From contig JAICQL010000028.1 in the NCBI GenBank assembly GCA_025937895.1, positions 1-32,000 on the forward strand: DNA of 32,000 bases, read 5' to 3'. This document shows, piece by piece, positions 6,588 through 27,898 of this stretch. The stretch is from Polyangiaceae bacterium. Lineage in GTDB: Bacteria > Myxococcota_A > Polyangia > Polyangiales > Polyangiaceae. Numbering within the stretch: the stretch's first letter is position 1; every line of letters begins with the position of its first letter. The position numbers and the translations under genes are program-made. Under the pieces are notes generated by a model, which saw only the letters and a program-made list of their open reading frames with translations, did no database searches and had not been told where the DNA came from.

Positions 6588-7426
6588 GACTCGGACACCA
6601 CTCGCAGACGGCGGTCGGGTAACGTGGCCTCCGCCCGGGCCCTGGCTGGAAACAGGTGTGAGGGGCGCACGTTGCCGAGCGCCGCGAACAGGTTGCCGCG
6701 TACGTGCGGGTTCTCCGCGTGCAGCTCACTGATCAGCTGCTTGACCCGCTGGCGCTTCAGGTTGTCCTGCGACCCACACAGATCACAGGGCAAGATCGGA
6801 AAGGCGCGCAGCGCCGCGTAGCGCGCGATGTCCTCTTCTGCCGAGTAGCACAGCGGACGGATCACGATGTGCGCGCCGTCGTCCGAGACCAGCCGCGGCG
6901 GCATGGCCTTGATCTGCCCCGCATACAGCAGGTTCATCAGCAAGGTCTCGGTCATGTCGTCACGGTGGTGACCGAGCGCGATCTTGTTGCAGCCCAGCCG
7001 CCGCGCCGTCGTGTACAGGATGCCGCGGCGCAGGCGCGAGCACAGCGAGCAATACGTCTTGCCCTCCGGCACCTTCGCCTTCACCACCGAATAGGTGTCC
7101 TCCTGCACGATCTCGAACGGGTACTGCTCCTGCTCCAGGTACCCGCGCAGCACGTGCAGCGGATAGCCCGGATGGCCCTGATCGATGTTCACCGCCACGA
7201 AGCTGAACTGAAAGGGCACCCGCGCCTGCAGCTGCCGCAGCAGATCGAGCAGCGTGTACGAGTCCTTCCCGCCGCTGATCGCCACCAGCACGTGGTCCCC
7301 CGGCTCGATCAGCCCGTAGTCACGGCTGGCCTGCGAGAGCTGCCCGAGCAGCCGCCGCCCGAGCTGCTGCCCATCGTCGCGCGCCGCAGCGGAGGGCGTG
7401 GACGCCCCTGGCAGAGCCTGTGTCAT
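6584..7426 (-). CDS. ttcA: tRNA 2-thiocytidine biosynthesis protein TtcA
   Basis: PP-loop AISGGKDSYTLL plus Cys motifs CSLCSRLRRG and CDLCGSQ. Start set at internal MTQALPG (7426) instead of 7612. Confidence 0.9.
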   Translation of the reverse strand: MTQALPGASTPSAAARDDGQQLGRRLLGQLSQASRDYGLIEPGDHVLVAISGGKDSYTLLDLLRQLQARVPFQFSFVAVNIDQGHPGYPLHVLRGYLEQEQYPFEIVQEDTYSVVKAKVPEGKTYCSLCSRLRRGILYTTARRLGCNKIALGHHRDDMTETLLMNLLYAGQIKAMPPRLVSDDGAHIVIRPLCYSAEEDIARYAALRAFPILPCDLCGSQDNLKRQRVKQLISELHAENPHVRGNLFAALGNVRPSHLFPARARAEATLPDRRLRVVSES

Positions 7427-7668
7427 GAGAGTGCCATTTTCCTGCAAATGCGGGCGCGAAGCCACCGTGGAGAGCGGCACGGCGGGCAGCACCAGCACTG
7501 CCGAGCCGAACGGCTCGAGCGCCGAGCTGCGCAGGGTTATGCCGCCATCGGCTGACTGGGGCAAGAGCACCCAACTGCCGGCGAGAGCGCGGCCTGCTCC
7601 GCTCCTGAACACACGTTTGCAAGGTAAAACCCACCGGAGCGAGCTGCCTTCCTGCCCGCGCTGGTGCT

Positions 7669-8343
7669 ATGTCGGCGCTCATGATCAACAGCGGCCATCT
7701 GGCGCAGCTGGCGTTCACCGTAGTGGCCGCCGCGGGCGTGTACTCCTTCCTCACCTCCGCCCGCGAGGGCGAGCGGCGGCGCATGTGCACTCCCGCGTGC
7801 GCGCTACGGCCGCAATACGCCAACAACAACCGCACCGCGCCCGACTTCGAGCTGCCCACGCTCGACGGCAGCACCAAGAAGCTGTCGGACTACCGCGGCA
7901 AGGTCGTGGTGCTGAATTTCTGGACCAAATCCTGCCGCCCCTGCCTGGAGGAGATGCCGGCGCTCGCCGACTTCGCCCGAGTGCTGGAGAAGGAGGGAGA
8001 CCTCCAGCTGCTGACCGTCAGCACGGACGAGTCGGTGGCCGATGCCCGGGACACCCTGCTCTCCGTGCTCGCCGGGGACCCTCCGTTCGTCACCTTCGTG
8101 GACACGGAGAACCAGTTCGTCAGCGAGAAATACGGGACCAAGCTCTACCCGGAGACCTGGTTCATCGACAAGCAGGGCGTGATTCGCGCCCGCTTCGACG
8201 GCGCGCGCGAGTGGATGAAGCCGCTCAACCTGGAGTTTGCCCAGTCGCTGCGCGGCCCCGCCACCTGCCAGGTCCAGTTCGACAACCAGGAGCCCATCGG
8301 CCCGTTCAAGGACGTCTGCAACGACATCCCGCTCGCCATCTGA
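7669..8343 (+). CDS. TlpA/ResA-like membrane-anchored thiol:disulfide oxidoreductase
   Basis: N-terminal TM helix LAQLAFTVVAAAGVYSFL. Thioredoxin-fold motif VLNFWTKSCRPCLEEMP (CxxC). Confidence 0.8.
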   Translation: MSALMINSGHLAQLAFTVVAAAGVYSFLTSAREGERRRMCTPACALRPQYANNNRTAPDFELPTLDGSTKKLSDYRGKVVVLNFWTKSCRPCLEEMPALADFARVLEKEGDLQLLTVSTDESVADARDTLLSVLAGDPPFVTFVDTENQFVSEKYGTKLYPETWFIDKQGVIRARFDGAREWMKPLNLEFAQSLRGPATCQVQFDNQEPIGPFKDVCNDIPLAI

Positions 8344-8374
8344 GCCGGGCCGCTCTTTGCTCGAGCTGCTCAGG

Positions 8375-8387
8375 TGTTCACTGAACA
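8375..8387. promoter_or_regulatory. perfect 6-1-6 palindrome TGTTCA-c-TGAACA (possible operator)
   Basis: Read directly from the sequence. It lies 58 nt upstream of the ATG at 8445 and 32 nt after the redoxin stop. Confidence 0.3.
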
Positions 8388-8444
8388 TCTGGACAGAGCC
8401 GCTAGCGCGCGCTATGTAGGGATCCCCCCTGCCTGGAGGTTCTC

Positions 8445-8720
8445 ATGCGTGTTGCTGCCATCTTGCGCCCCCTCGATGACGTGCCCGTGGATTTCCGAGC
8501 CGATCCCGACGGCACCTGGGATTTTGAAGCCCTTGCCGCAGCCGCAGGCTTTGAAGAAGCCTGGGGACAGATTTCCATCGGGGCCCTGATGGAGCCATAC
8601 CTCGGCTTCCCCGAAGGAGCCGCCGTGGTGCTGCTCAGCGCACCGGAAGAGAGCGCCATCGCGCTCGTCGATTGCACGGCGAGGGTGGAGCACCGCTACC
8701 AGACCAGCGCCGCAGCCTGA
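8445..8720 (+). CDS. small acidic hypothetical protein (91 aa)
   Basis: Strong SD GGAGG (8435-8439) sits 5 nt before the ATG. Asp/Glu-rich composition is unlike shadow ORFs. No family recognised. Confidence 0.5.
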   Translation: MRVAAILRPLDDVPVDFRADPDGTWDFEALAAAAGFEEAWGQISIGALMEPYLGFPEGAAVVLLSAPEESAIALVDCTARVEHRYQTSAAA

Positions 8721-8841
8721 GGCTCGCCGGGCCGAAGGGAGAAGGGGCTCGGTGTCGGGCGTCGACCGACCGACGCTAGAATGTGCCCGCTCGCCCAGCC
8801 CCCGGCGACCACGGCAATGCACGTCAGCCGCTCGCCGTGAG

Positions 8842-11286
8842 TCACTCAGCCAGCAGCGCTGCGAGCACGCCCGGCTCATTCCGTCGCAGCTCCACGACCG
8901 GCACCGCCAGACCCAGCCGGCGGAGCTCGGCGGCATTGCTGCCCGTGCTCGCATCCGGCGTGGGCGGCGCACTGAGCACCAGCACGTCGGGCGAGCGCCC
9001 CAGCGCTCGCAGCGCGTGCAGGGTGCTGGTGACGTCGTGCAAGACACCTAGCCGATCGGGAGCCACCAGCACCCAGCGGGCGTTGCCCAGCGCGCGAGCG
9101 AGCTCGAAGTTCGTCGTGCCGGCGCCCAGCGGGGAGAGGACTCCACCCGCCGTCTCTATCACCAGGGCTGGCAGCTCCGAGCTCTGACACCGCACTCGGT
9201 CCACCCAGGACGCGATGGCGTTCACATCGATCTCCTGTCCCTCGTGGTGCGCTGCCAGGGACGGGGCAATGGGCTCACGGAAGGCGTACAGCGGATGCGG
9301 CCGCGGGTGCTTCACCCGGGCGGAGGCCTGCTCCAGCAGCGCCGCGTCACCCCCGCACGGCTGCCCATCAGCGCTCGTCCCGCAACCCGTCTCGACCGGC
9401 TTCAGGCCCGCGACCGCGTGGCCCGACTCCGCCAGGATCCGGACCAGTGCGGCCGCGACATAGCTCTTGCCGACGCCGGTGCCAGTGCCCAGCACGATCC
9501 AGCGCTGCTGCGTGAACGAATCGTGGACGGTACGGGTGCGCGCGCCCAGCGCGAGCTGGGCTGGAGCGCTGGTGGAGGGAGGAGGCACCACCGAGGGCGA
9601 AGCGGCGCTGGCTGACGACGCAAGGTCGGGCTGCGCACGGACGCCGGACGGCGAGGCCACGTCGGGCGGCGAAGCGGCTGGCGGTGAAGCGAAGGAGGGG
9701 GCAAGGCCCGGCTGCGGTATTGAGGACGGCGAAGCGGAGACCGCCGAAGCGAGTGAGGGGGCGGCGAGTGGGGGCGCAGCGAGTGGGGGCGCAGCGCCGG
9801 GCAGCGTGCCGGCGGCTCCGGAGCGCTCGCTCGAGTCGGCAGGGTCGGCAGACTGCTCGCGCCAGGCGCTCAGCAGGGCAGAGCCCAGGAGCTCGAGCTC
9901 CGTATCTGTCATGTCCGCACGCAGAGAGATGCGCAGGCGCGAGCTGCCTCTTGGCACGGTTGGCGGGCGAATCGCCTGGGCTCGAACCCCGAGCTGCTCG
10001 AGCTGCGCCGCTGCCCGCAAGGTGGCGGCCTCGCTCCCGAACACCACGGGAAAGAGCGGCCCGTGCCTGCCGGCGGGCAAGGGGATACCGCTCGAAATCA
10101 GCTTACGCTCCAGCCGAGCAGCGAGCGCGCCCAGCCGCGTCCGGGCCCGGTCCGCGGTGCGCACCACCTGCAGATGCTCCTGCGCCCGCGCGCAGAGCCA
10201 CGGGCTGACCCCGGTGGAGAAGACAAAGCTCCGAGCACGGTTCCAGAGCCACTGCCGGTAACACCGCGCTCCGGCGACGAAGCCCCCCTGCAGTCCAAAG
10301 GCCTTGCCGAACCCACCCACCAGCAGGTCCGGCACCACCCCGACCGCTGCCGCCAGCCCCCGCCCCTCCGGACCAAAGACCCCCAGCCCGTGCGTCTCGT
10401 CGAGGATCAGCGCTGCCTGATGCTGGTTGCACAGCTCGCGCAACGCCGCGAAGTCCGGGCTCGTGCCATCCATGCTGAAGTAGCTCTCCGTCACCACCCA
10501 GCGCACCGTTCGCTCTGGGCGCGGACGAGCCAGGCCGACAGCGAGCGCATCCAGGTCCCGATGGGGAACCACCACCGTCTCCGCGCGGCTCAAGCGACAG
10601 CCGTCGATGATCGACGCGTGGTTCAGGGCATCCGAGAAGATCACATCGCTCGGCAAAGCCAGCGCGCTCAGAACCCCAACGTTCGCTGCATACGCGCTCG
10701 AGAACAGAAGGCTCGACTCCACCTCCAGCCAGGTCGCCAGCGCCGCCTCGAGCGCTTCGTGCTCGAGCGTCGTCCCTGACACCAGTCGCGAAGCGCCAGC
10801 TCCCAGCCGCTCCGCGCCCGCAACGTGTCCGCGCGTTTCACGTGAAACGCGTGGAACGAGCCCGCGCGTGGGCTCACGAGCTGCAGAGCCCTGGCCCACT
10901 TGACGCCACTCGCAGTGCGCCTCCCCGAGGCTTCCGTCACGCGGCTCCTGGTCCACCGTTGCGCCGGCTGTTTCACGTGAAACGTCGCCCCCGCGCGCCG
11001 ATTGCTCTTGGGCGCGCCCAGCGTCGCCGAGGCCTCGGCCAAACACCTCGCAAGCCAATCCCAGGTAGTCGTTCGACCGCGTGTCGAGCACGCTGCTCTG
11101 AGAGCCGCCAAAGTCCGTCCGGCCCTCCGCCGAGCGATAGAGCCCAGCGGCACGCAGCGCGTCTAGCAGCTCCACCAGCCGATCAGCAGCCCGCATCCCA
11201 CCCCGTGCATAGCGCATCAGCCCCTCCCCGGATACGGGCAGTGCCTGTCGAGCCAGCGGACGCGGCCCGCAGGTACCCGCAACCAT
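8842..11286 (-). CDS. bioF: fused 8-amino-7-oxononanoate synthase (BioF) / dethiobiotin synthetase (BioD), with a parS-bearing insertion in the BioF part
   Basis: BioF motifs NDYLGLA, GAGASRLVSGT, YFSMDG, GGFGKAFG and IRPPTVPRGSSRLR. A Pro/Ala/Ser linker of about 120 aa follows. Then the BioD P-loop WIVLGTGTGVGKSYV and a BioD-like body. The true start may be the Met at 11217. Confidence 0.85.
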   Translation of the reverse strand: MVAGTCGPRPLARQALPVSGEGLMRYARGGMRAADRLVELLDALRAAGLYRSAEGRTDFGGSQSSVLDTRSNDYLGLACEVFGRGLGDAGRAQEQSARGGDVSRETAGATVDQEPRDGSLGEAHCEWRQVGQGSAAREPTRGLVPRVSRETRGHVAGAERLGAGASRLVSGTTLEHEALEAALATWLEVESSLLFSSAYAANVGVLSALALPSDVIFSDALNHASIIDGCRLSRAETVVVPHRDLDALAVGLARPRPERTVRWVVTESYFSMDGTSPDFAALRELCNQHQAALILDETHGLGVFGPEGRGLAAAVGVVPDLLVGGFGKAFGLQGGFVAGARCYRQWLWNRARSFVFSTGVSPWLCARAQEHLQVVRTADRARTRLGALAARLERKLISSGIPLPAGRHGPLFPVVFGSEAATLRAAAQLEQLGVRAQAIRPPTVPRGSSRLRISLRADMTDTELELLGSALLSAWREQSADPADSSERSGAAGTLPGAAPPLAAPPLAAPSLASAVSASPSSIPQPGLAPSFASPPAASPPDVASPSGVRAQPDLASSASAASPSVVPPPSTSAPAQLALGARTRTVHDSFTQQRWIVLGTGTGVGKSYVAAALVRILAESGHAVAGLKPVETGCGTSADGQPCGGDAALLEQASARVKHPRPHPLYAFREPIAPSLAAHHEGQEIDVNAIASWVDRVRCQSSELPALVIETAGGVLSPLGAGTTNFELARALGNARWVLVAPDRLGVLHDVTSTLHALRALGRSPDVLVLSAPPTPDASTGSNAAELRRLGLAVPVVELRRNEPGVLAALLAE
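10834..10849. promoter_or_regulatory. parS: parS-like ParB-binding site 1 (inside bioF)
   Basis: CGTTTCACGTGAAACG has a perfect 14-bp core and matches TGTTTCACGTGAAACA at 14/16. It is part of a perfect 20-nt palindrome, 10832-10851. Confidence 0.8.
10969..10984. promoter_or_regulatory. parS: parS-like ParB-binding site 2 (inside bioF)
   Basis: TGTTTCACGTGAAACG, 15/16 to consensus. It lies 135 bp (45 codons) from site 1. Confidence 0.85.
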
Positions 11287-11611
11287 GCCCCGCCTCCATG
11301 AGCCGCGACCGCCAACCGGACTGCGCTCGCGCTCATGAGCCTGTCCAACGCCACGCCTGCGGCCAGACTGCCGCGTTCGAACCCGAAGCTGTCACTGGCC
11401 CGATCAAGTCCCTTGCCCGCTTCGCTCGCAGGCTGCGCTCAAACTTCGCGGCAAGGGACGTCGTCGTCTCGGCAGCGGGAGCGCGCCAACTCAGTCAAAG
11501 CTGCTGCCAGTGGGTGCGTCCACTGGATGCACCCGCGCCGCTAGCCAGCTTGCGCCCCCCGAGCGTGCCGCAGCCGGCGCAGGGCCTCCTCCGGGGGAGC
11601 GAGGTTGCGCC

Positions 11612-11627
11612 TGTTTCACGTGAAACT
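11612..11627. promoter_or_regulatory. parS: parS-like ParB-binding site 3
   Basis: TGTTTCACGTGAAACT, 15/16 to consensus. Confidence 0.85.
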
Positions 11628-12904
11628 CGGACCCTGTGCCGCAGCCTCGGCTCAGGCAGCCTGCCGCCGGCACCCAGAGCTTCCGATACGCAACCAGAGC
11701 AGGTCTCCGATGGCGGATCCCCTCCCTGGCCCGTCTCCATTGCGACCGCCAGGGCCACCCGCCTGCTTCCCTTAGCTGCGACCGCTCGCTGCATGCACAC
11801 CGGCCTTCTGCCGGCATTGAGGCGCTCCCGCGCCAAACGGTGAGCGCGCTCAACTCAGCTGCTAGCCCGTGGCCACGCACCGTCCAGCTCCAATGTCCCC
11901 CCAGCGTCAGGCCCGCTGAACCCATCAAGAGAGGCTTGCGGGCGCGGGCCTCGCACCACGCCTCGTTACCCCGCACGGCGCAAGGGGGCCAGCCGCGCAT
12001 CGCCTTCCCGCCGTCACGTGCCTTGCCCCACCTTCTCCCGTGGTCGCGCGAGACCCCGCGGACGGCCATAGAGTGTATAGGGGTCTCGAGTGGCGACCCG
12101 AAAGTGTGAGCCCCCGCCCGGTTCGTTCCCCGCTGAGACGCCGCGGCCTCCCACGCGGCCGTGCCGCGACGAATGGCAGCCCTGCCGGCGCCTGCCTTCG
12201 CACCGCCTCGTCTGAGCACCGACTGATAGACCCGCGCGCTGCCGGGAGGCCGCTCACGTTCCTTCGATTGGTCGCGTCACAGTCCTCTGCCTCACACGCC
12301 TTGGTTTCTCGTGCTTGACCTACCGCTGGCACGAGGACGAGCGAGCTCAGCAGCCGCTGTGCGCGAGCCTGCAGGCAATGGCAAGCGCCTCGTCCCCGGC
12401 CGCGCTCGAGACGGCAAAATGCGACGCCCGGGACCGCGCGGTGCTGCTGGGGTTGCACGTGCCGCCACGGAGCGGAGCGGGGCGGGGCCGGCTCCCCGAA
12501 CCGAGCGCGGCCCCCTCTGCATCGCCTGGCCTCCGCCCTGAGTCCGGAGCCCTGCGCTGGCGGCCGGGCGCACTAGGCCCACTGGGCTGGGCGAGCGCGA
12601 AGGCTCCGCTCGGCCGCGGGAGAGCGGAGCGCCGCCGGAGGAAACCTTCCCAGCGCAGCCCGGGTTCGCCCCGGCGAGTATTCGGTCTCGCTCGCGCGGG
12701 CGTAAGCCTAAGTGCCGACCGCCACCCGACCGTCGCTGCTGCGCGGGGCGCACCTGCGCCTCCTCACCTTTGGAACGCAAACAATTCGGCCCGCGCTCCT
12801 CATACTCGCTTCAATCAGGCCGCGTGCTGTCTCCACGGGTGCAATGGCCCGCGAAGAGCGCCGAGGCGGGTGCTGCTGCTGCCGAGAGCGGGGCGCGCTG
12901 TCTT

Positions 12905-12920
12905 CGTTTCACGTGAAACA
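12905..12920. promoter_or_regulatory. parS: parS-like ParB-binding site 4
   Basis: CGTTTCACGTGAAACA, 15/16 to consensus. Confidence 0.85.
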
Positions 12921-13153
12921 CTCGGCGCGGCTGCGACTGCGTCGAGCGATCGCGGCGCCAGGTGCGACGCAGACGTATGCGCGGCAGCTGGTCTCCGCGC
13001 GGCGTCACCATCTGGATGGTTAGCGCCAGGCGAGCGCGACGGTCACGGGACGGAACGCGCCGAGCCTATCAATGGCCAATGGCCGAGCCGCCGCCGCCGG
13101 TGCTCGCGGATGTTCGGCGCTCGAACTGGCTCGGGCATTCACTGGGGGGGCCT

Positions 13154-13169
13154 CGTTTCACGTGAAACG
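13154..13169. promoter_or_regulatory. parS: parS-like ParB-binding site 5 (satellite unit)
   Basis: CGTTTCACGTGAAACG, perfect 14-bp core. Confidence 0.8.
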
Positions 13170-13294
13170 GACAAACCTGAGAGGTCCGCAGAAGACGCTC
13201 CTCGAGCCCATCAATGGCCAACGGCGGAGGCGCCGCCGCCAGTGCTCGCGACGTTCGGCGCGCAACCCGCCTCCGGCATTAGCGGGCGACCGCT

Positions 13295-13310
13295 CGTTTC
13301 ACGTGAAGCG
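13295..13310. promoter_or_regulatory. parS: parS-like site 6 (satellite unit, one core mismatch)
   Basis: CGTTTCACGTGAAGCG. Confidence 0.6.
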
Positions 13311-13439
13311 CACCAGCCGGAGACTCCCGCAGGAGGCGCTCTCCGGTCCTTGTCAACGGCCAATGGCCGAGCCCCCGAGGCCTCGGTGCCCGCGGCCGTT
13401 CGGCGCACAAGCCGGCTCGGCCATCACCAGGCGTCTGCT

Positions 13440-13455
13440 CGCTTCACGTGAAACG
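13440..13455. promoter_or_regulatory. parS: parS-like site 7 (satellite unit, one core mismatch)
   Basis: CGCTTCACGTGAAACG. Confidence 0.6.
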
Positions 13456-13587
13456 CGCCAGCCTGAGAGGCGCGCAGAAGGCGTTCCTCGGTCCTGTCAA
13501 CGGCAGTGGCCGAGCCCGCCGAGGCCCCGGTGCTCGCGGATGTTCGGCGCGCAAAACCGGCTCGGGCATTGGGGGGGCGGGGCCGTT

Positions 13588-13603
13588 CGTTTCACGTGAA
13601 ACG
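13588..13603. promoter_or_regulatory. parS: parS-like ParB-binding site 8 (satellite unit)
   Basis: CGTTTCACGTGAAACG, perfect 14-bp core. Confidence 0.8.
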
Positions 13604-13731
13604 GACCAGCCTGAGAGTTCCGCAGGAGGCGCTCTCCGGTCCTGTCAACGGCAACGGCCGAGCCGCCGAGGCCCGGCGCTCGCGAATGTTGGGCGCGCAA
13701 ACGTGCTCGGGCATTAGCGGGAGGGACGGTT

Positions 13732-13747
13732 CTTTTCACGTGAAACC
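13732..13747. promoter_or_regulatory. parS: parS-like site 9 (satellite unit, one core mismatch)
   Basis: CTTTTCACGTGAAACC. Confidence 0.55.
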
Positions 13748-13872
13748 GACCAGCCTGAGAGTCCCACAAGAGGCGCTCCCCGGTCCTGTCGACGGCCAAT
13801 GGGCTAGACGCCGAGGGCCGTGCTCGCGGCTGTTCGCGCTCACCGGGCTCACGCATTACCGGGTCACCCGCT

Positions 13873-13888
13873 CGGTTCCCGTGAAACG
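13873..13888. promoter_or_regulatory. degenerate parS-like site 10 (last, decayed satellite unit)
   Basis: CGGTTCCCGTGAAACG. The right half-site is intact; the left half has two core mismatches. Confidence 0.35.
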
Positions 13889-14913
13889 CACGAGCCCGAG
13901 AGTCGCTCCCCCTAACGCGGGGCCTCCAACCATCGACAGCCACGGTCGACATGAACTTTGCATCCGCTGCCTCACACGAGTCGCGGACACTGCGACAGCG
14001 TCAAGGCGTCCTCATTTGGGAGCTCACTCAACGGAACCTGCCACCCCATCCGAGACAAGCTTGCTACGCCTCGGCGGGGCTCACTGAGGCTGCCACCCCC
14101 ATCCTCGTCCTCCTCCCGCGAGTGGCTCCCCACATCGTCAGCCCGCCCGAGGGTGCGGCGGCAGCCGCCTCGCTTCCTTCGGACCTGTGCCGTGAGGCCC
14201 GTAGTGCGCTCTCGCTCTGCCTCAGCTTCGTCTCCCCCTCGTCGATGCTCCGGAGCGTGCAGCCGCTGCGGCACGCGAGCACCCACCCTCGTCGCGGCGC
14301 TCCGCGCCGGCTATCGTTGGTTGCCACCCGCGAGCGGCTAGCTCTCGAGAGAGCCGGTCGGCGCCCGCTGGAGCCGACCCGAGCAGAGCGCGCGGCGCCC
14401 GCGCCGAATCGACTTCTCCCCGTGGCAGCGCCGTGCGGCTGGACGGGGACACGCTGGAGCCGCACGCCTGCCGGCCGCACTCGCTCCAGGCGTGAGAGAA
14501 TGCCATCGTCAGGAAAGGAACGACGTACCCCCGGAAGTAGCGGAGCGGGGAGATGACCCAGACTAACCCGCGGGACAACGGTGACGGCAGCGTCCCGCGG
14601 AAGCCCGGCTTCCCGCGGCCATGGCTTCGGTGCGGCTCTGGCCACGGCTCCGACCCCGACGTCGCCTCGAAGCTCGGCACGGCCGCGCCGTCCGATGTCC
14701 GGCCCCCTGCCCACCGAGGTACCCTTCTTGGCCATGCAGCCCTTCGCCCAGCACCGTCCGAGAACCCGCTCCAACAAGGTCGCTTCGACGCCCAGCGACC
14801 CTCGCCGGAACTGGCTTCAACCAGCCGGAGCCAAGAAGGCTTTGATCCGAACCCGCGCCCTCATCTTCCGGCGCCCTGTCCGCCGTGCGCAGCAGCCGCC
14901 AATAGACGCTGAT

Positions 14914-14929
14914 GGTTTCACGTGGAACA
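14914..14929. promoter_or_regulatory. parS: parS-like site 11 (isolated)
   Basis: GGTTTCACGTGGAACA, 14/16 to consensus with one core mismatch. Confidence 0.6.
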
Positions 14930-14999
14930 ACCAGTAAGCCGCTGGGGCACGCAACCCCAGAGCTCGGCGTTCACCCTCTTACACGCGCACTCCCGGCCC

Positions 15000-15800
15000 G
15001 CCTGTCTGCGGACCTCGCCCGGTACTGGTGGGGGCCACGAACCTAAGCGTCGAATGCCGAGTCGCTGCGGTCCCACCGTCCTGGCGCGCACGAGAGCTGC
15101 TCGCGCGGACCCCTCCCGGCTCCAGAGTTCGTGGGAGCCTGAACAGCCTCCCTCCGGCTGCTAGAAGCCGAGTCACTGCCTGGACGCTGCTCCGGCGGGT
15201 CTGCCCGCGTCGGACCTCGCTGGATACTAGCGAGTCTTCCGGCACCTGAAGCCCGAGTCACCGCCCAAGCGGTCTCACCGGGCGTGGCGGCGGTACACGA
15301 GAGCCGTCACACCAAGCCATCGCCCGCCGCCGGACCTCGCTGCCTACCGAACAGCTGACGAGGCCGTGTCTTCCGGCACCAGAGGCCAAGTCGCTGCCCC
15401 GCAGGCCTCGCCGCCAGGGCCAGCGCCGCGAGCCGCTCGTTCGGCTCCTTCCGAGCGGGCCTCGATTACGGGACAGGCCGCGAGCCCTCACCGGAGCCAT
15501 TCGGCGCCCAAGCGGTCCACCGCCGCGGCCCGACGTTACGGGAGGAGATCACCGACCAATCCTGGCGGCGGCCTCGTTGAGTGCTCCACGGGTCGGAGTC
15601 CTTCCGACCACCTGCAAGGGCGATTCGCTGCCGAGCGGTCTACCGCAGTCGTCGCGTGAACGGTGCCACTCGCCCATGAGCAAGCGACGTGCGGACCGCG
15701 CGGCGTCTCCACCGCACACTTGGCGGTGAGCGGGTGACGACGAGGGAGGCCCGCCGGCGCCCAGATGGTCTGCTTCCGGCACCATCCTCGGCCCGCGTTG
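15000..15800. repeat. second, degenerate direct-repeat family (no parS)
   Basis: CGGACCTCGC occurs at 15009, 15211 and 15331. GTCTTCCGGCACC occurs at 15234 and 15368, with GCTTCCGGCACC at 15772. GCCGAGTCRCTGCC-like blocks occur at 15056, 15167, 15251 and 15384. Spacing is roughly 110-135 bp. Confidence 0.5.
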
Positions 15801-15866
15801 GCGACCACCCAGCGTGCTCCGGTGCATCCCGCCGCTGACGCACCGGCGACGGTCCGGCTCCACCCG

Positions 15867-15933
15867 CTGCGCTGGTGGTGACACCCCCTGCTCGGCCCCA
15901 CTGCGCTGGTGGTGACACCCCTGCTTGGCGCGG
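15867..15933. repeat. 34-bp tandem duplication
   Basis: CTGCGCTGGTGGTGACACCCCCTGCTCGGCCCCA (15867-15900) is followed at once by CTGCGCTGGTGGTGACACCCCTGCTTGGCGCGG (15901-15933). Confidence 0.8.
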
Positions 15934-16608
15934 GTGCGTGCATCCGGCGCCGCTCGAATGCGTTGGCCATTGCTGGCCGAGAGTGTCGGGCAGCGGAGAT
16001 GGACCTCGCCTCAGTGACAGAGCGAGCGGAGCCGCCGGAGCTCGGTGCCACCGCGGTGATGGCGGGCGCGGCGCTGGGCGCCTCAGGGGTGTCGAGTCAG
16101 AGCGCCGACTCGTGTCTGCCCCGCGCCCGTGGGCGCAGCGACGAAGGACCGGTCGTCGCCGGCTCGAGTTCCCGTTGACCGACCGTGCTTCACCAGTGCA
16201 TCGAGCGGCCAACCTCCCCAAAGCCAGCCACTCGGCTGGCTCGCACGAGGGCAGTGGTCAACCGCCCACGCTCCTGTCGCCCCGCTCTGCGTCGAGTCCC
16301 GCGGCGCGGACACGGCCTCCGAGCAAGCACTATCACTGCACTGCTGGCCTTTCACTCCGACCTCGGATCACGTCCTTGGCGCTGATCACGCTGCGTGGAC
16401 TGAGTGATCACGATGGGCGGAACGCCCAACCTTCGCTACGCCCGTTACCGCGAGGTGGCGTGCGCCGGATGCTTCCCGCAGCCGGCAGCACCCTGCCGCG
16501 TCGGCCCAGCGCCATCCCCGATGCGCTCGCCATGGTCTCCCTCCCAGCACCAGGAGCCCGCGCCGCTTCGCCACTCGCGCGCGCGCACTTTGCTCGGCTG
16601 ACCGGTCC

Positions 16609-16668
16609 TTATCTACCAGCATGCATCCACAGCTATCCCCCAACTATCCACAGCCTGTGGACAGGCTG
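16609..16668. promoter_or_regulatory. cluster of DnaA-box-like 9-mers with overlapping palindromes
   Basis: Compared with TTATCCACA: TTATCTACC (16609, 7/9), GCATCCACA (16623, 7/9), CTATCCCCC (16633, 6/9) and CTATCCACA (16644, 8/9). TGTGGACAG (16656) is the reverse complement of CTGTCCACA (7/9, or 8/9 to the high-GC variant TTGTCCACA). This is locally the least GC-rich stretch of the desert. Palindromes TCCACAG-c-CTGTGGA (16647-16661) and CAGCCTG-tgga-CAGGCTG (16651-16668) overlap. Confidence 0.35.
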
Positions 16669-16813
16669 GGGATGACCTGCTCCGCCTTCCCACCCGGGCT
16701 CCGCACGGATTACTGCTCGCTTGTCGAGACGACTCGCTCGACGGCTGCTCCCAGCGACGGTCCGCCGCGTTCCCTCGGCTTCGCTGGCCGCCGCAGGCGA
16801 CCCCTCCGCGCTC

Positions 16814-17140
16814 TCAGCCGGCGGGGGCAGCGGGCAACGGGTCGCCGTTTTCGTCGACTCCGTCGAGCGCTTCGTTCACTCGCTCGAGCAGCTGGCGCAA
16901 CATGGCCTCAGCGCCGTCCAGATCCGCGCGGCGCTGGGCGCGCTCCTGCTCCAGGTCGTGGGCGAGCGCCATCGCGACGAGCAACATCGCCTGCGGGTGC
17001 GACGTGCGATCGGTGCCCGTCAGCGCGCGCAGGCGCTCGTTCACCACGCCGGCGTAGCGCTGCAGCGTCTGCTCGCCGGAGGAGGCGACCAGGCGATACG
17101 ACTGGCCCCCTACACTCACTTCCACGGCGGGGCGCATCAT
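16814..17140 (-). CDS. zapA: cell division protein ZapA
   Basis: From the internal Met: MMRPAVEVSVGGQSYRLVASSGEQTLQRYAGVVNERLRAL...LLVAMALAHDLEQER. Length (~108 aa) and pattern match ZapA. The upstream part of the tracked ORF is Arg-rich junk. Confidence 0.8.
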   Translation of the reverse strand: MMRPAVEVSVGGQSYRLVASSGEQTLQRYAGVVNERLRALTGTDRTSHPQAMLLVAMALAHDLEQERAQRRADLDGAEAMLRQLLERVNEALDGVDENGDPLPAAPAG

Positions 17141-17213
17141 CGCGGCACGGTACCATTCGCCACGCGCAAGGGGAAAGCGCGCTGCGCCCCGGTTCGGAAA
17201 ACAGCCATGCGGC

Positions 17214-26655: not shown

Positions 26656-27705
26656 TCAGTTGGGGCCGAGATTGTACACGAGCGCGAGCATGGCCACGCC
26701 CCAGGAGAACACGATGGCCACGAAAGGCCCGTCGCGGAGCATCTCCTGCGTGGGGCTCTCCGACTTCGGCCGGGTGCGAACCAGCACCATGAAGCGCCAC
26801 AGTGCCACCGCCACGAACACGCTGGTCCACCACAGGTGCCGCGAGTTGAAGAAGTCCATGGTCTCCGGATCCAGCGTGTACGCCACGTAGCTGGCCACCG
26901 TCAGCACCGCGGTGGTGCGATGGCTCCAGCGCAGCCCGTGCCGCGTGTAACCCCCGAGCGCCTTGCGCTGCTGCTGCGCCATGCCACGCGCCGCCGTGCT
27001 CAGCTCGTGCCGGCGCTTGCCCAGGCCCAGGAACAGTGCCAGCAGCGCCGTGCACAGCGCCAGGTAGGTCGACACCTCGGTGTGGGTGGCAAAGCCGCCT
27101 GCCAGAACGCGCAGCACGAAGCCCGCCGCGATCGCCGCCACGTCCAGGTAGGCGACCTGCTTCAGCCGGAACGAATAGGCCACGTTGAGCAGAAAATAGC
27201 TCAGTGCCGTGACCAGGAACTCCCACGGACCGATGGCGGCCCCGGCCAGGCTGACCAGCACCAGCGCGACCACGGCCGTGCGCGCCCAGCCGATCGGCAC
27301 GCGGCCCGAGGGGATGGGCCGATAGCGCTTGATGGGATGGGTCGCATCGTTGTCGATGTCGACCAGATCGTTCATCGTGTACACGGCGCCGGTCAGCAGA
27401 CAGAACACGCCGAACGCGCCGATCGAGCGCACCAGCAGATCCGTGATGAACATCTCGCGCGCGAACACCACCGGCGCCAGGACGAAGACGTTCTTCACCC
27501 ACTGGTGCGGGCGCATGGTGAGCAACAAGCCGCCCAGCCGCCAGACCACCAGCCTGAGCCCCTGGCTGGGGGGCGGCGGCGGCGACAGGTTGACCGAATC
27601 CGTCGACGGCGACGGATCGGAGTCGAGCCCGCTGGACTGCGATGGTGGCTCACTGTCGTCCGCACGCATGCCGTTGCCGTGCTGGATGCTCGCCGTCTGA
27701 ACCAT
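26656..27705 (-). CDS. UbiA-family decaprenyl-phosphate phosphoribosyltransferase-like enzyme
   Basis: RPHQWVKNVFVLAPVVFA and NDLVDIDNDATHPIKRYRPIPSG (NDxxDxxxD plus the KR.RPI block typical of DPPR synthases). Multiple TM helices. 12-nt gap to the CPBP gene, so probably one operon. Confidence 0.85.
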   Translation of the reverse strand: MVQTASIQHGNGMRADDSEPPSQSSGLDSDPSPSTDSVNLSPPPPPSQGLRLVVWRLGGLLLTMRPHQWVKNVFVLAPVVFAREMFITDLLVRSIGAFGVFCLLTGAVYTMNDLVDIDNDATHPIKRYRPIPSGRVPIGWARTAVVALVLVSLAGAAIGPWEFLVTALSYFLLNVAYSFRLKQVAYLDVAAIAAGFVLRVLAGGFATHTEVSTYLALCTALLALFLGLGKRRHELSTAARGMAQQQRKALGGYTRHGLRWSHRTTAVLTVASYVAYTLDPETMDFFNSRHLWWTSVFVAVALWRFMVLVRTRPKSESPTQEMLRDGPFVAIVFSWGVAMLALVYNLGPN

Positions 27706-27764: not shown

Positions 27765-27839
27765 TTGCCGCGCGACCTCGTTGCCGCGCGGCCTCGTTGC
27801 CCTGACGTGGTTGCCCCGACGTGGTTGCCCGCGACGTGG
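27765..27839. repeat. five tandem TTGCC-initiated short repeats in a divergent promoter region
   Basis: TTGCCGCGCGACCTCG (27765-27780), TTGCCGCGCGGCCTCG (27781-27796), TTGCCCTGACGTGG (27797-27810), TTGCCCCGACGTGG (27811-27824) and TTGCCCGCGACGTGG (27825-27839). A degenerate TTGGCGCGAGACGT follows. Confidence 0.75.
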
Positions 27840-27898
27840 TTGGCGCGAGACGTTCCGGCTTGACGTCCCGCGGGGCCCCGGGGCATCCGAAGACTGCC

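Follow-up and report, generated by a model that had tools for sequence, protein, structure and literature searches.

How does a row of parS sites at near-constant distances come to lie in the chromosome of an uncultured myxobacterium, and is anything besides the parS sites kept in it? The question is raised by a 32-kb stretch of DNA from a Polyangiaceae bacterium (contig JAICQL010000028.1, positions 1 to 32,000; from here on called the window), in which an earlier note, made from the sequence, had described six consecutive units of about 144 bp with one parS each, had likened them to the iterated centromeres of plasmids and had known of no such satellite described for a chromosome. The direct basis for an answer is that six head-to-tail copies, each with a canonical or near-canonical parS, lie in a non-coding gap, and that every syntenic relative has parS in this gap as well. 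We consider it likely that the array arose by a lineage-specific tandem amplification of a ~144-bp parS-bearing segment in the chromosomal centromere region. The array is old enough for ~30% divergence between its units.

The tandem array and its parS sites

A search of the window with the parS consensus TGTTTCACGTGAAACA at up to three mismatches gave 10 matches within 4.1 kb, as compared to none in 100 shuffles. The parS cluster as a whole comprises 11 sites (10834-14929), six of them in the array, one of which is degenerate, and five outside it, the flanks of the latter being unrelated to the repeat unit (Table 1). In the array the 14-nt parS core is perfect in two units, has one mismatch in three and two mismatches in one. 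In Myxococcus xanthus a parS with two substitutions is bound by ParB about ten times more weakly; the parS of unit 6 is probably weak or dead.

Tandem Repeats Finder (TRF) detected in the window a single long-period array (13065-13904; period 144-145, 5.9 copies, 76% matches, score 824). In a repeat search of the window it appeared as six in-register head-to-tail copies with start-to-start distances of 141, 145, 148, 144 and 141 bp, exactly the periods given in the earlier note. The array spans 13031-13906 in all, and every unit terminates in parS. The description of six units with one parS each has to be amended at both ends, since the sixth parS is degenerate and unit 1 is homologous to the other units only from ~13060.

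The claim that the entire unit had been amplified, and not the ParB site alone, is borne out by the six-unit alignment (MAFFT), in which the resemblance runs along the whole unit and is thus not confined to the 16-bp parS, and by a profile without the parS columns, which matched all six units (E = 1e-28 to 1e-32) and nothing more in the 32 kb. Outside parS, pairs of units are 63-81% identical (19-37% divergence; mean ~69%), units 4 and 5 being the closest pair (81%) and the edge units the most diverged. Decayed edge units and a central pair most alike are the usual pattern of an old tandem array without ongoing homogenisation. With at least three head-to-tail copies, a near-constant period, homology over the whole unit and a non-coding sequence, the array has the properties by which a tandem repeat is recognized. 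The shared blocks between the sites that had been quoted in support were recovered in part: a 25-nt block occurs in exact form once (13530), and a 46-nt block, which combines parts of units 3 and 5, occurs nowhere in exact form in the window.

The same divergence bears on the possibility that the array is an assembly artefact, i.e., a repeat collapsed or expanded in a metagenome-assembled contig. The source is indeed a 52.5-kb contig of a metagenome-assembled genome (MAG), and a second, independent assembly of the organism did not turn up. Artefacts of this kind stem, however, from near-identical repeats, whereas the units differ by 19-37% outside parS and the longest exact string common to any two of them is 24 nt, so that assembly k-mers tell every unit apart. 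We give this explanation, which the earlier note had named as one to be checked, a very small probability.

Within the unit the most conserved run of 16 alignment columns is parS, with a mean pairwise identity of 0.88-0.90 as compared to 0.69 elsewhere. The runner-up block, GTGCTCGCGGATGTTCGGCGC, has an identity of 0.85, which is not above the column-shuffle expectation (P = 0.33; 0.90 without unit 1). The proposal that conserved blocks outside parS bind a second factor is therefore not supported in its original form, the best of these blocks being no better than column shuffles. The same holds for the motifs named in it, the AATGGCC direct repeat and TGGCCA: of the six units, only the first has AATGGCCAATGGCC in exact form, and only the first two have TGGCCA. 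Our reading is that the similarity outside parS goes back to the segment that was duplicated and is now being lost by drift, and that it does not mark the binding site of a second factor (~69% identity as against 88% for parS).

Table 1. Coordinates in the window of the repeat units, parS sites, inverted repeats and flanking genes.
Feature	Position	Strand	Remarks
Unit 1	13029-13169	+	5' 30 nt are the array junction
Unit 2	13170-13310	+	141 bp
Unit 3	13311-13455	+	145 bp
Unit 4	13456-13603	+	148 bp
Unit 5	13604-13747	+	144 bp
Unit 6	13748-13888	+	141 bp; decayed edge unit
Truncated seventh unit	13889-13906	+	Start only; CACGAGCCCGAGAGTCGC matches the CCAGCCTGAGAG block found after each parS
parS, unit 1	13154-13169		CGTTTCACGTGAAACG; perfect 14-nt core
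parS, unit 2	13295-13310		CGTTTCACGTGAAGCG; one core mismatch
parS, unit 3	13440-13455		CGCTTCACGTGAAACG; one core mismatch
parS, unit 4	13588-13603		CGTTTCACGTGAAACG; perfect core
parS, unit 5	13732-13747		CTTTTCACGTGAAACC; one core mismatch
Degenerate parS, unit 6	13873-13888		CGGTTCCCGTGAAACG; four mismatches to consensus, two of them in the core and one in the central CACGTG
parS outside array	10834-10849		Within the long bioF open reading frame, in its 5' part
parS outside array	10969-10984		
parS outside array	11612-11627		
parS outside array	12905-12920		249 bp upstream of the parS in unit 1; flanks not homologous to the unit
parS outside array	14914-14929		GGTTTCACGTGGAACA
Inverted repeat, unit 1	13078-13139	+	Arms: AATGGCCGAGCC at 13078-13089, complement at 13128-13139
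Inverted repeat, unit 2	13220-13231 / 13269-13280		
Inverted repeat, unit 3	13362-13373 / 13414-13425		
Inverted repeat, unit 4	13505-13516 / 13559-13570		
Inverted repeat, unit 5	13653-13664 / 13704-13715		
Non-coding stretch with most of the parS cluster	11300-16700		~5.4 kb; between bioF/bioD and zapA
bioF-bioD fusion gene	8842 to ~10900	-	Flanks the non-coding stretch
zapA	16814-17155	-	Other flank; followed by a conserved hypothetical gene and aroK-aroB

The gap between zapA and bioF

Elsewhere in the window there are housekeeping genes, e.g., ddl and the gene for UDP-glucose dehydrogenase. The GC content is ~70%. The segment is chromosomal, as the earlier note had assumed from the sequence: housekeeping genes flank the array, the gene order is kept in six relatives, and BLASTN searches against plasmids (PLSDB) and phages gave no match.

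The non-coding stretch at ~11300-16700 was searched for genes and signals of other kinds. The GC content at third codon positions (GC3) is flat in all frames across it, and its open reading frames (ORFs) all have negative codon log-likelihoods (-0.11 to -0.51 bits/codon, as compared to +0.21 to +0.73 for the confident genes of the window). Pfam, Rfam, ARAGORN and a promoter scan found no match in it, and a terminator scan found one site where 2.8 were expected, which is no more than chance. An array of promoters or terminators and a tRNA-related element were rejected on these grounds.

It could also be thought that a repetitive protein or a structured RNA is the product of the repeat, the more so as long ORFs overlap the array (12315-13451 and 13072-13599 on the plus strand and 13497-13952 on the minus strand). 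The codon scores of these three are, however, -0.23 to -0.27 bits/codon, neither GC3 periodicity nor a Pfam match was found, and two of the five periods (145 and 148 bp) do not preserve the reading frame, an argument against a coding repeat that the earlier note had already made and that stands. A structured RNA or DNA was rejected because there is no match in Rfam and no consistent fold across the units. To a protein- or RNA-encoding repeat we ascribe next to no probability.

Six syntenic loci (L121, L122 and L128-L131) were inspected. The BioF/D protein of the window is 100% identical to one protein from a 52.5-kb MAG contig; its next relatives are only 63-64% identical and are labelled as coming from MAGs of Polyangiaceae, Deltaproteobacteria or Pseudomonadota. 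A tblastx comparison of the window with L121 and L122 gave mostly noise in this high-GC DNA, and only its strong matches were retained, by which aroKB, zapA and the hypothetical gene are identified. All six relatives have the gene order aroKB - hypothetical gene - zapA - gap - bioF/D - ... - ddl, and their zapA-bioF gaps are 1.3-5.5 kb long and lack Pfam-supported genes. In some of the relatives hypothetical genes are called in the gap, none of which has a Pfam match. Between lineages the gaps have no detectable similarity outside parS.

Sites for ParB are present in the gap region of each of the six relatives (3-9 sites, with no preferred spacing). Because every gap region holds parS, the zapA-bioF gap region is the predicted conserved chromosomal centromere region of the lineage. 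When the unit minus parS was used as query in nhmmer, nothing similar was found in the six loci. Two of them have tandem duplications of their own in the gap: in L129 four parS are spaced by 114-120 bp, with parS-bearing repeats of 120 and 243 bp at 8126-8878 (TRF), and L128 has a 259-bp repeat in 2.7 copies at 7361-8058, within which there is no parS of up to three mismatches. These duplications are independent of the array in the window.

Some parS sites lie within the called coding sequence of bioF/D (10834-10984 in the window; 6489, 6630 and 7910 in L121; 10162 and 11433 in L122; 10267 in L128). One parS ~1.27-1.4 kb into bioF/D recurs in three relatives, but the window does not have it. 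The parS cluster of all seven Polyangia-type loci is within a few kb of zapA, which encodes a Z-ring associated protein, and on the zapA side the cluster directly adjoins no other Pfam-supported gene.

Multi-site centromeres of plasmids and chromosomes

The centromere of the F plasmid, sopC, consists of 12 tandem units of 43 bp, each with one inverted repeat to which SopB binds, and the units are near-identical. The array in the window is similar in that its units are arranged head to tail and have one inverted-repeat site for a protein of the ParB family each. It differs from sopC in being chromosomal, in adjoining no partition operon, in having no similarity to entries in PLSDB and in its ~3.3 times longer unit. 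Neither parAB nor sopAB was found in the window. It also departs from the sopC type, with its near-identical units of fixed period, in that its units are ~70-80% identical and its period varies between 141 and 148 bp.

Much closer is the centromere of M. xanthus. Its chromosome has 24 parS sites, 22 of which are within 3.05 kb at a mean spacing of ~145 bp and are bound by ParB (PMC3778016, PMC3899335); the cluster was named "22-repeat parS stretch" by its author. In Myxococcus eversor the counterpart (L059) consists of whole units of 136-138 bp repeated in tandem with 84-90% identity, directly upstream of parA and parB, from which it follows that the experimentally studied centromere of the Myxococcus type has a satellite-like build. 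The window and Myxococcus have in common a dense chromosomal array of canonical parS in a myxobacterium, with many sites in a few kb, those of the array in the window being 141-148 bp apart. They differ in the number of sites, which is lower in the window than in M. xanthus (11, six of them in the repeat), in location, the Myxococcus array being just upstream of parAB and that in the window having zapA on one side, bioF on the other and no parAB within the 32 kb, in the core variant (TTTCACGTGAAA in the window and TTCCACGTGGAA in M. xanthus) and in the units, whose sequences are unrelated. The two arrays therefore arose independently. Thus, by its locus, its core variant and its unit sequence the array in the window differs from that of Myxococcus, and it is best filed as an independently arisen example of an already known kind, the dense multi-parS chromosomal centromere.

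Many canonical parS serving one chromosome are also known from Streptomyces coelicolor, Listeria innocua, Corynebacterium glutamicum and Bacillus subtilis, with 20-23 sites in S. coelicolor and L. innocua (PMC7333895). Loading of ParB clamps is presumably common to these dispersed multi-parS chromosomes and the window. In contrast to the array, the sites of these organisms are described as a cluster near the origin and not as head-to-tail copies of one unit (PMC7333895). An explicit account of chromosomal parS as tandem repeats or satellites of a longer unit was not found in the literature, of which our coverage was incomplete; only "clusters" are spoken of.

How common such arrays are in other bacteria was looked at by scanning a genome collection for three parS cores at 128-158-bp spacing. 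The scan gave at least 120 stretches from many phyla; being biased to spacings near 140 bp, it shows the breadth of occurrence and not the frequency. Among the matches listed, 30 of 120 stretches contain parS-bearing tandem repeats detected by TRF, with periods of 30-423 bp, mostly below 190 bp, and regular parS spacings of 36, 44-50, 74, 129, 136 or 150 bp are common. Such arrays are present on complete chromosomes, e.g., in Myxococcus sp. Y35, in Cystobacter fuscus, where gidA is the neighbour, and in a Hyphomicrobiales MAG. Together with the M. xanthus cluster and the M. eversor repeat these stretches deprive the chromosomal parS satellite of the novelty that the earlier note had claimed for it.

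A Coriobacteriaceae locus (L120) has a parS-bearing tandem unit (129 bp, 6.6 copies, 99% identity), Zimmermannella faecalis (L100) has 23 parS sites at ~151 bp, and the Hyphomicrobiales chromosome (L036/L058) has a 50-bp unit in 8-10 copies. Common to the window and to these arrays from other phyla, which are on large contigs or complete chromosomes, is the whole-unit tandem amplification of a parS segment. The latter differ from the array in the window by unrelated unit sequences, by periods of 36-183 bp and, in many cases, by a much younger age (93-99% identity); some of them may belong to integrated elements. On the 3.5-Mb Hyphomicrobiales MAG chromosome (OZ245032.1) the two arrays, L036 and L058, are at 0.41 and 2.16 Mb, i.e., 1.75 Mb apart, with 8-10 parS at 49-50-bp period and 97% identity; the chromosome could have two centromeres, or the arrays could belong to integrated elements. 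Two loci of uncultured Bacilli (L037, L089) have 13-15 parS sites with a period of 36-37 bp; their arrays, like those of L100 and L120, are very regular. It appears that little-studied lineages widely have dense tandem repeats of parS.

The non-parS part of the unit itself was found in none of the collections. A unit-specific pattern, which matches five of the six units in the window, found in a metagenome collection only five unrelated, chance-like loci of lower GC content with isolated parS, and nhmmer found nothing in the 120 pattern loci among the matches listed, including L001, L059, L063, L113 and L114. The consensus search in related genomes that had been recommended thus came back empty, the unit outside parS recurring in no relative, metagenome, plasmid or phage searched.

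The recurrence of periods near 144 bp invites the thought that the period itself is selected, be it for rotational phasing of ParB nucleation or for a certain length of wrapped or looped DNA. The period is close to the mean of ~145 bp in M. xanthus and to the 136-138 bp in M. eversor, and several unrelated arrays among the matches listed have periods of 129-153 bp. However, the scan had selected spacings of 128-158 bp, which biases the pile-up near 140 bp; elsewhere among the matches listed the periods are 67-105 bp in other myxobacteria and 36-183 bp in other phyla, and the syntenic relatives have no preferred parS spacing. In the array the helical offsets between successive parS are 154, 291, 34, 257 and 154 degrees. 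Spacings of 141-148 bp thus scatter the offsets, and rotational phasing of the ParB nucleation sites, which the earlier note had put forward, is therefore not maintained. We hold selection of the period to be highly unlikely.

With the array taken as an amplified parS segment, its function would follow from established ParB biology. Each intact parS would load CTP (cytidine triphosphate)-bound ParB clamps, which would then slide onto the flanking DNA. Five or six added loading sites close to one another would increase the loading flux and the local density of ParB at the partition complex, on which ParA and the SMC (structural maintenance of chromosomes) complex would act. We infer loading of ParB at the parS sites of the array by this analogy. 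The picture of dense loading is supported by M. xanthus, in which the dense parS cluster is the centre of a 33-kb ParB peak in chromatin immunoprecipitation sequencing (bioRxiv 10.1101/2021.05.05.442810).

Why parS sites differ in number and what makes them cluster in the course of evolution have been named as open questions in a review (PMC7333895). To these the array contributes a clear, datable case of how a multi-site centromere grows, namely by tandem duplication of a parS segment followed by drift except at parS. The 3-9 parS in the relatives, the independent duplication in one of them and the repeats in many phyla suggest that parS sites generally come to cluster by local duplication that occurs repeatedly. 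Neither a new component nor a new mechanism of ParABS is brought to light by the array.

An inverted repeat in the unit and other repeats in the window

Outside parS the units contain an inverted repeat, AATGGCCGAGCC...GGCTCGGSCATT, with arms of 12-13 nt and a spacer of ~40 nt, which is present in five of the six units and is unexplained by parS function. One may suppose that the unit is a composite of parS and a second functional element, the inverted repeat acting as a hairpin or as the site of another protein, which could be a co-factor or a roadblock confining ParB clamps. In favour of such a composite, 83% of the cells in the alignment of the arms are paired, as compared to 25-46% in slid controls; in three pairs, two of which belong to unit 2, both partners are altered, which was reached by only 2 of 500 column shuffles; the arms in the consensus unit are 13 nt long, a length attained in none of 100 dinucleotide shuffles; and the hairpin is within the minimum-free-energy fold of four of the six units.

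Against this it has to be said that the helix was picked post hoc from these same sequences, of which there are no more than six, all related. Folding gave weak z-scores (sub-region, -0.5 to -3.6; whole units, +1.1 to -2.1), and there is no common whole-unit fold. It is established that compensatory changes can come about without selection when the template is switched from one arm of a quasi-palindrome to the other. Moreover, the arms are absent from the six syntenic relatives and from all 131 loci searched, elsewhere in the window they do not occur above chance, and independent parS satellites elsewhere lack comparable inverted repeats outside parS. On balance we regard a composite unit as unlikely. 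Its further elaboration, a two-part centromere module in which a ParB loading site is combined with a maintained hairpin or symmetric site that binds a factor or organises the clamps, appears to us distinctly unlikely; if it were true, the array would be more than extra copies of parS.

The inverted repeat is also among the points that weigh against a simple amplification of parS with subsequent drift of the rest, since its compensatory changes are a hint that parS may not be the only element maintained in the unit. To this comes that parS itself exceeds the column-shuffle maximum only marginally, six units giving little power to tell constraint from drift, and that with relatives of only 63-64% BioF identity the absence of the unit there says little on recent constraint. 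Further, parA and parB are absent among the ORFs searched in the 32-kb window, and neither dnaA/oriC nor a GC-skew switch was found there.

Shorter repeats occur elsewhere in the window. Inside the non-coding stretch there is a direct duplication of 34 nt with 91% identity (15863-15929). The fusion gene contains, between its BioF and BioD domains, 3.3 tandem copies of a 15-nt unit (AGCGAGTGGGGGCGC) that keeps the reading frame (9748-9796). Just upstream of an ORF for a prenyltransferase of the UbiA family (26656-27705, minus strand), a unit of 14-15 nt (TTGCCCGCGACGTGG) is repeated about five times (27765-27848).

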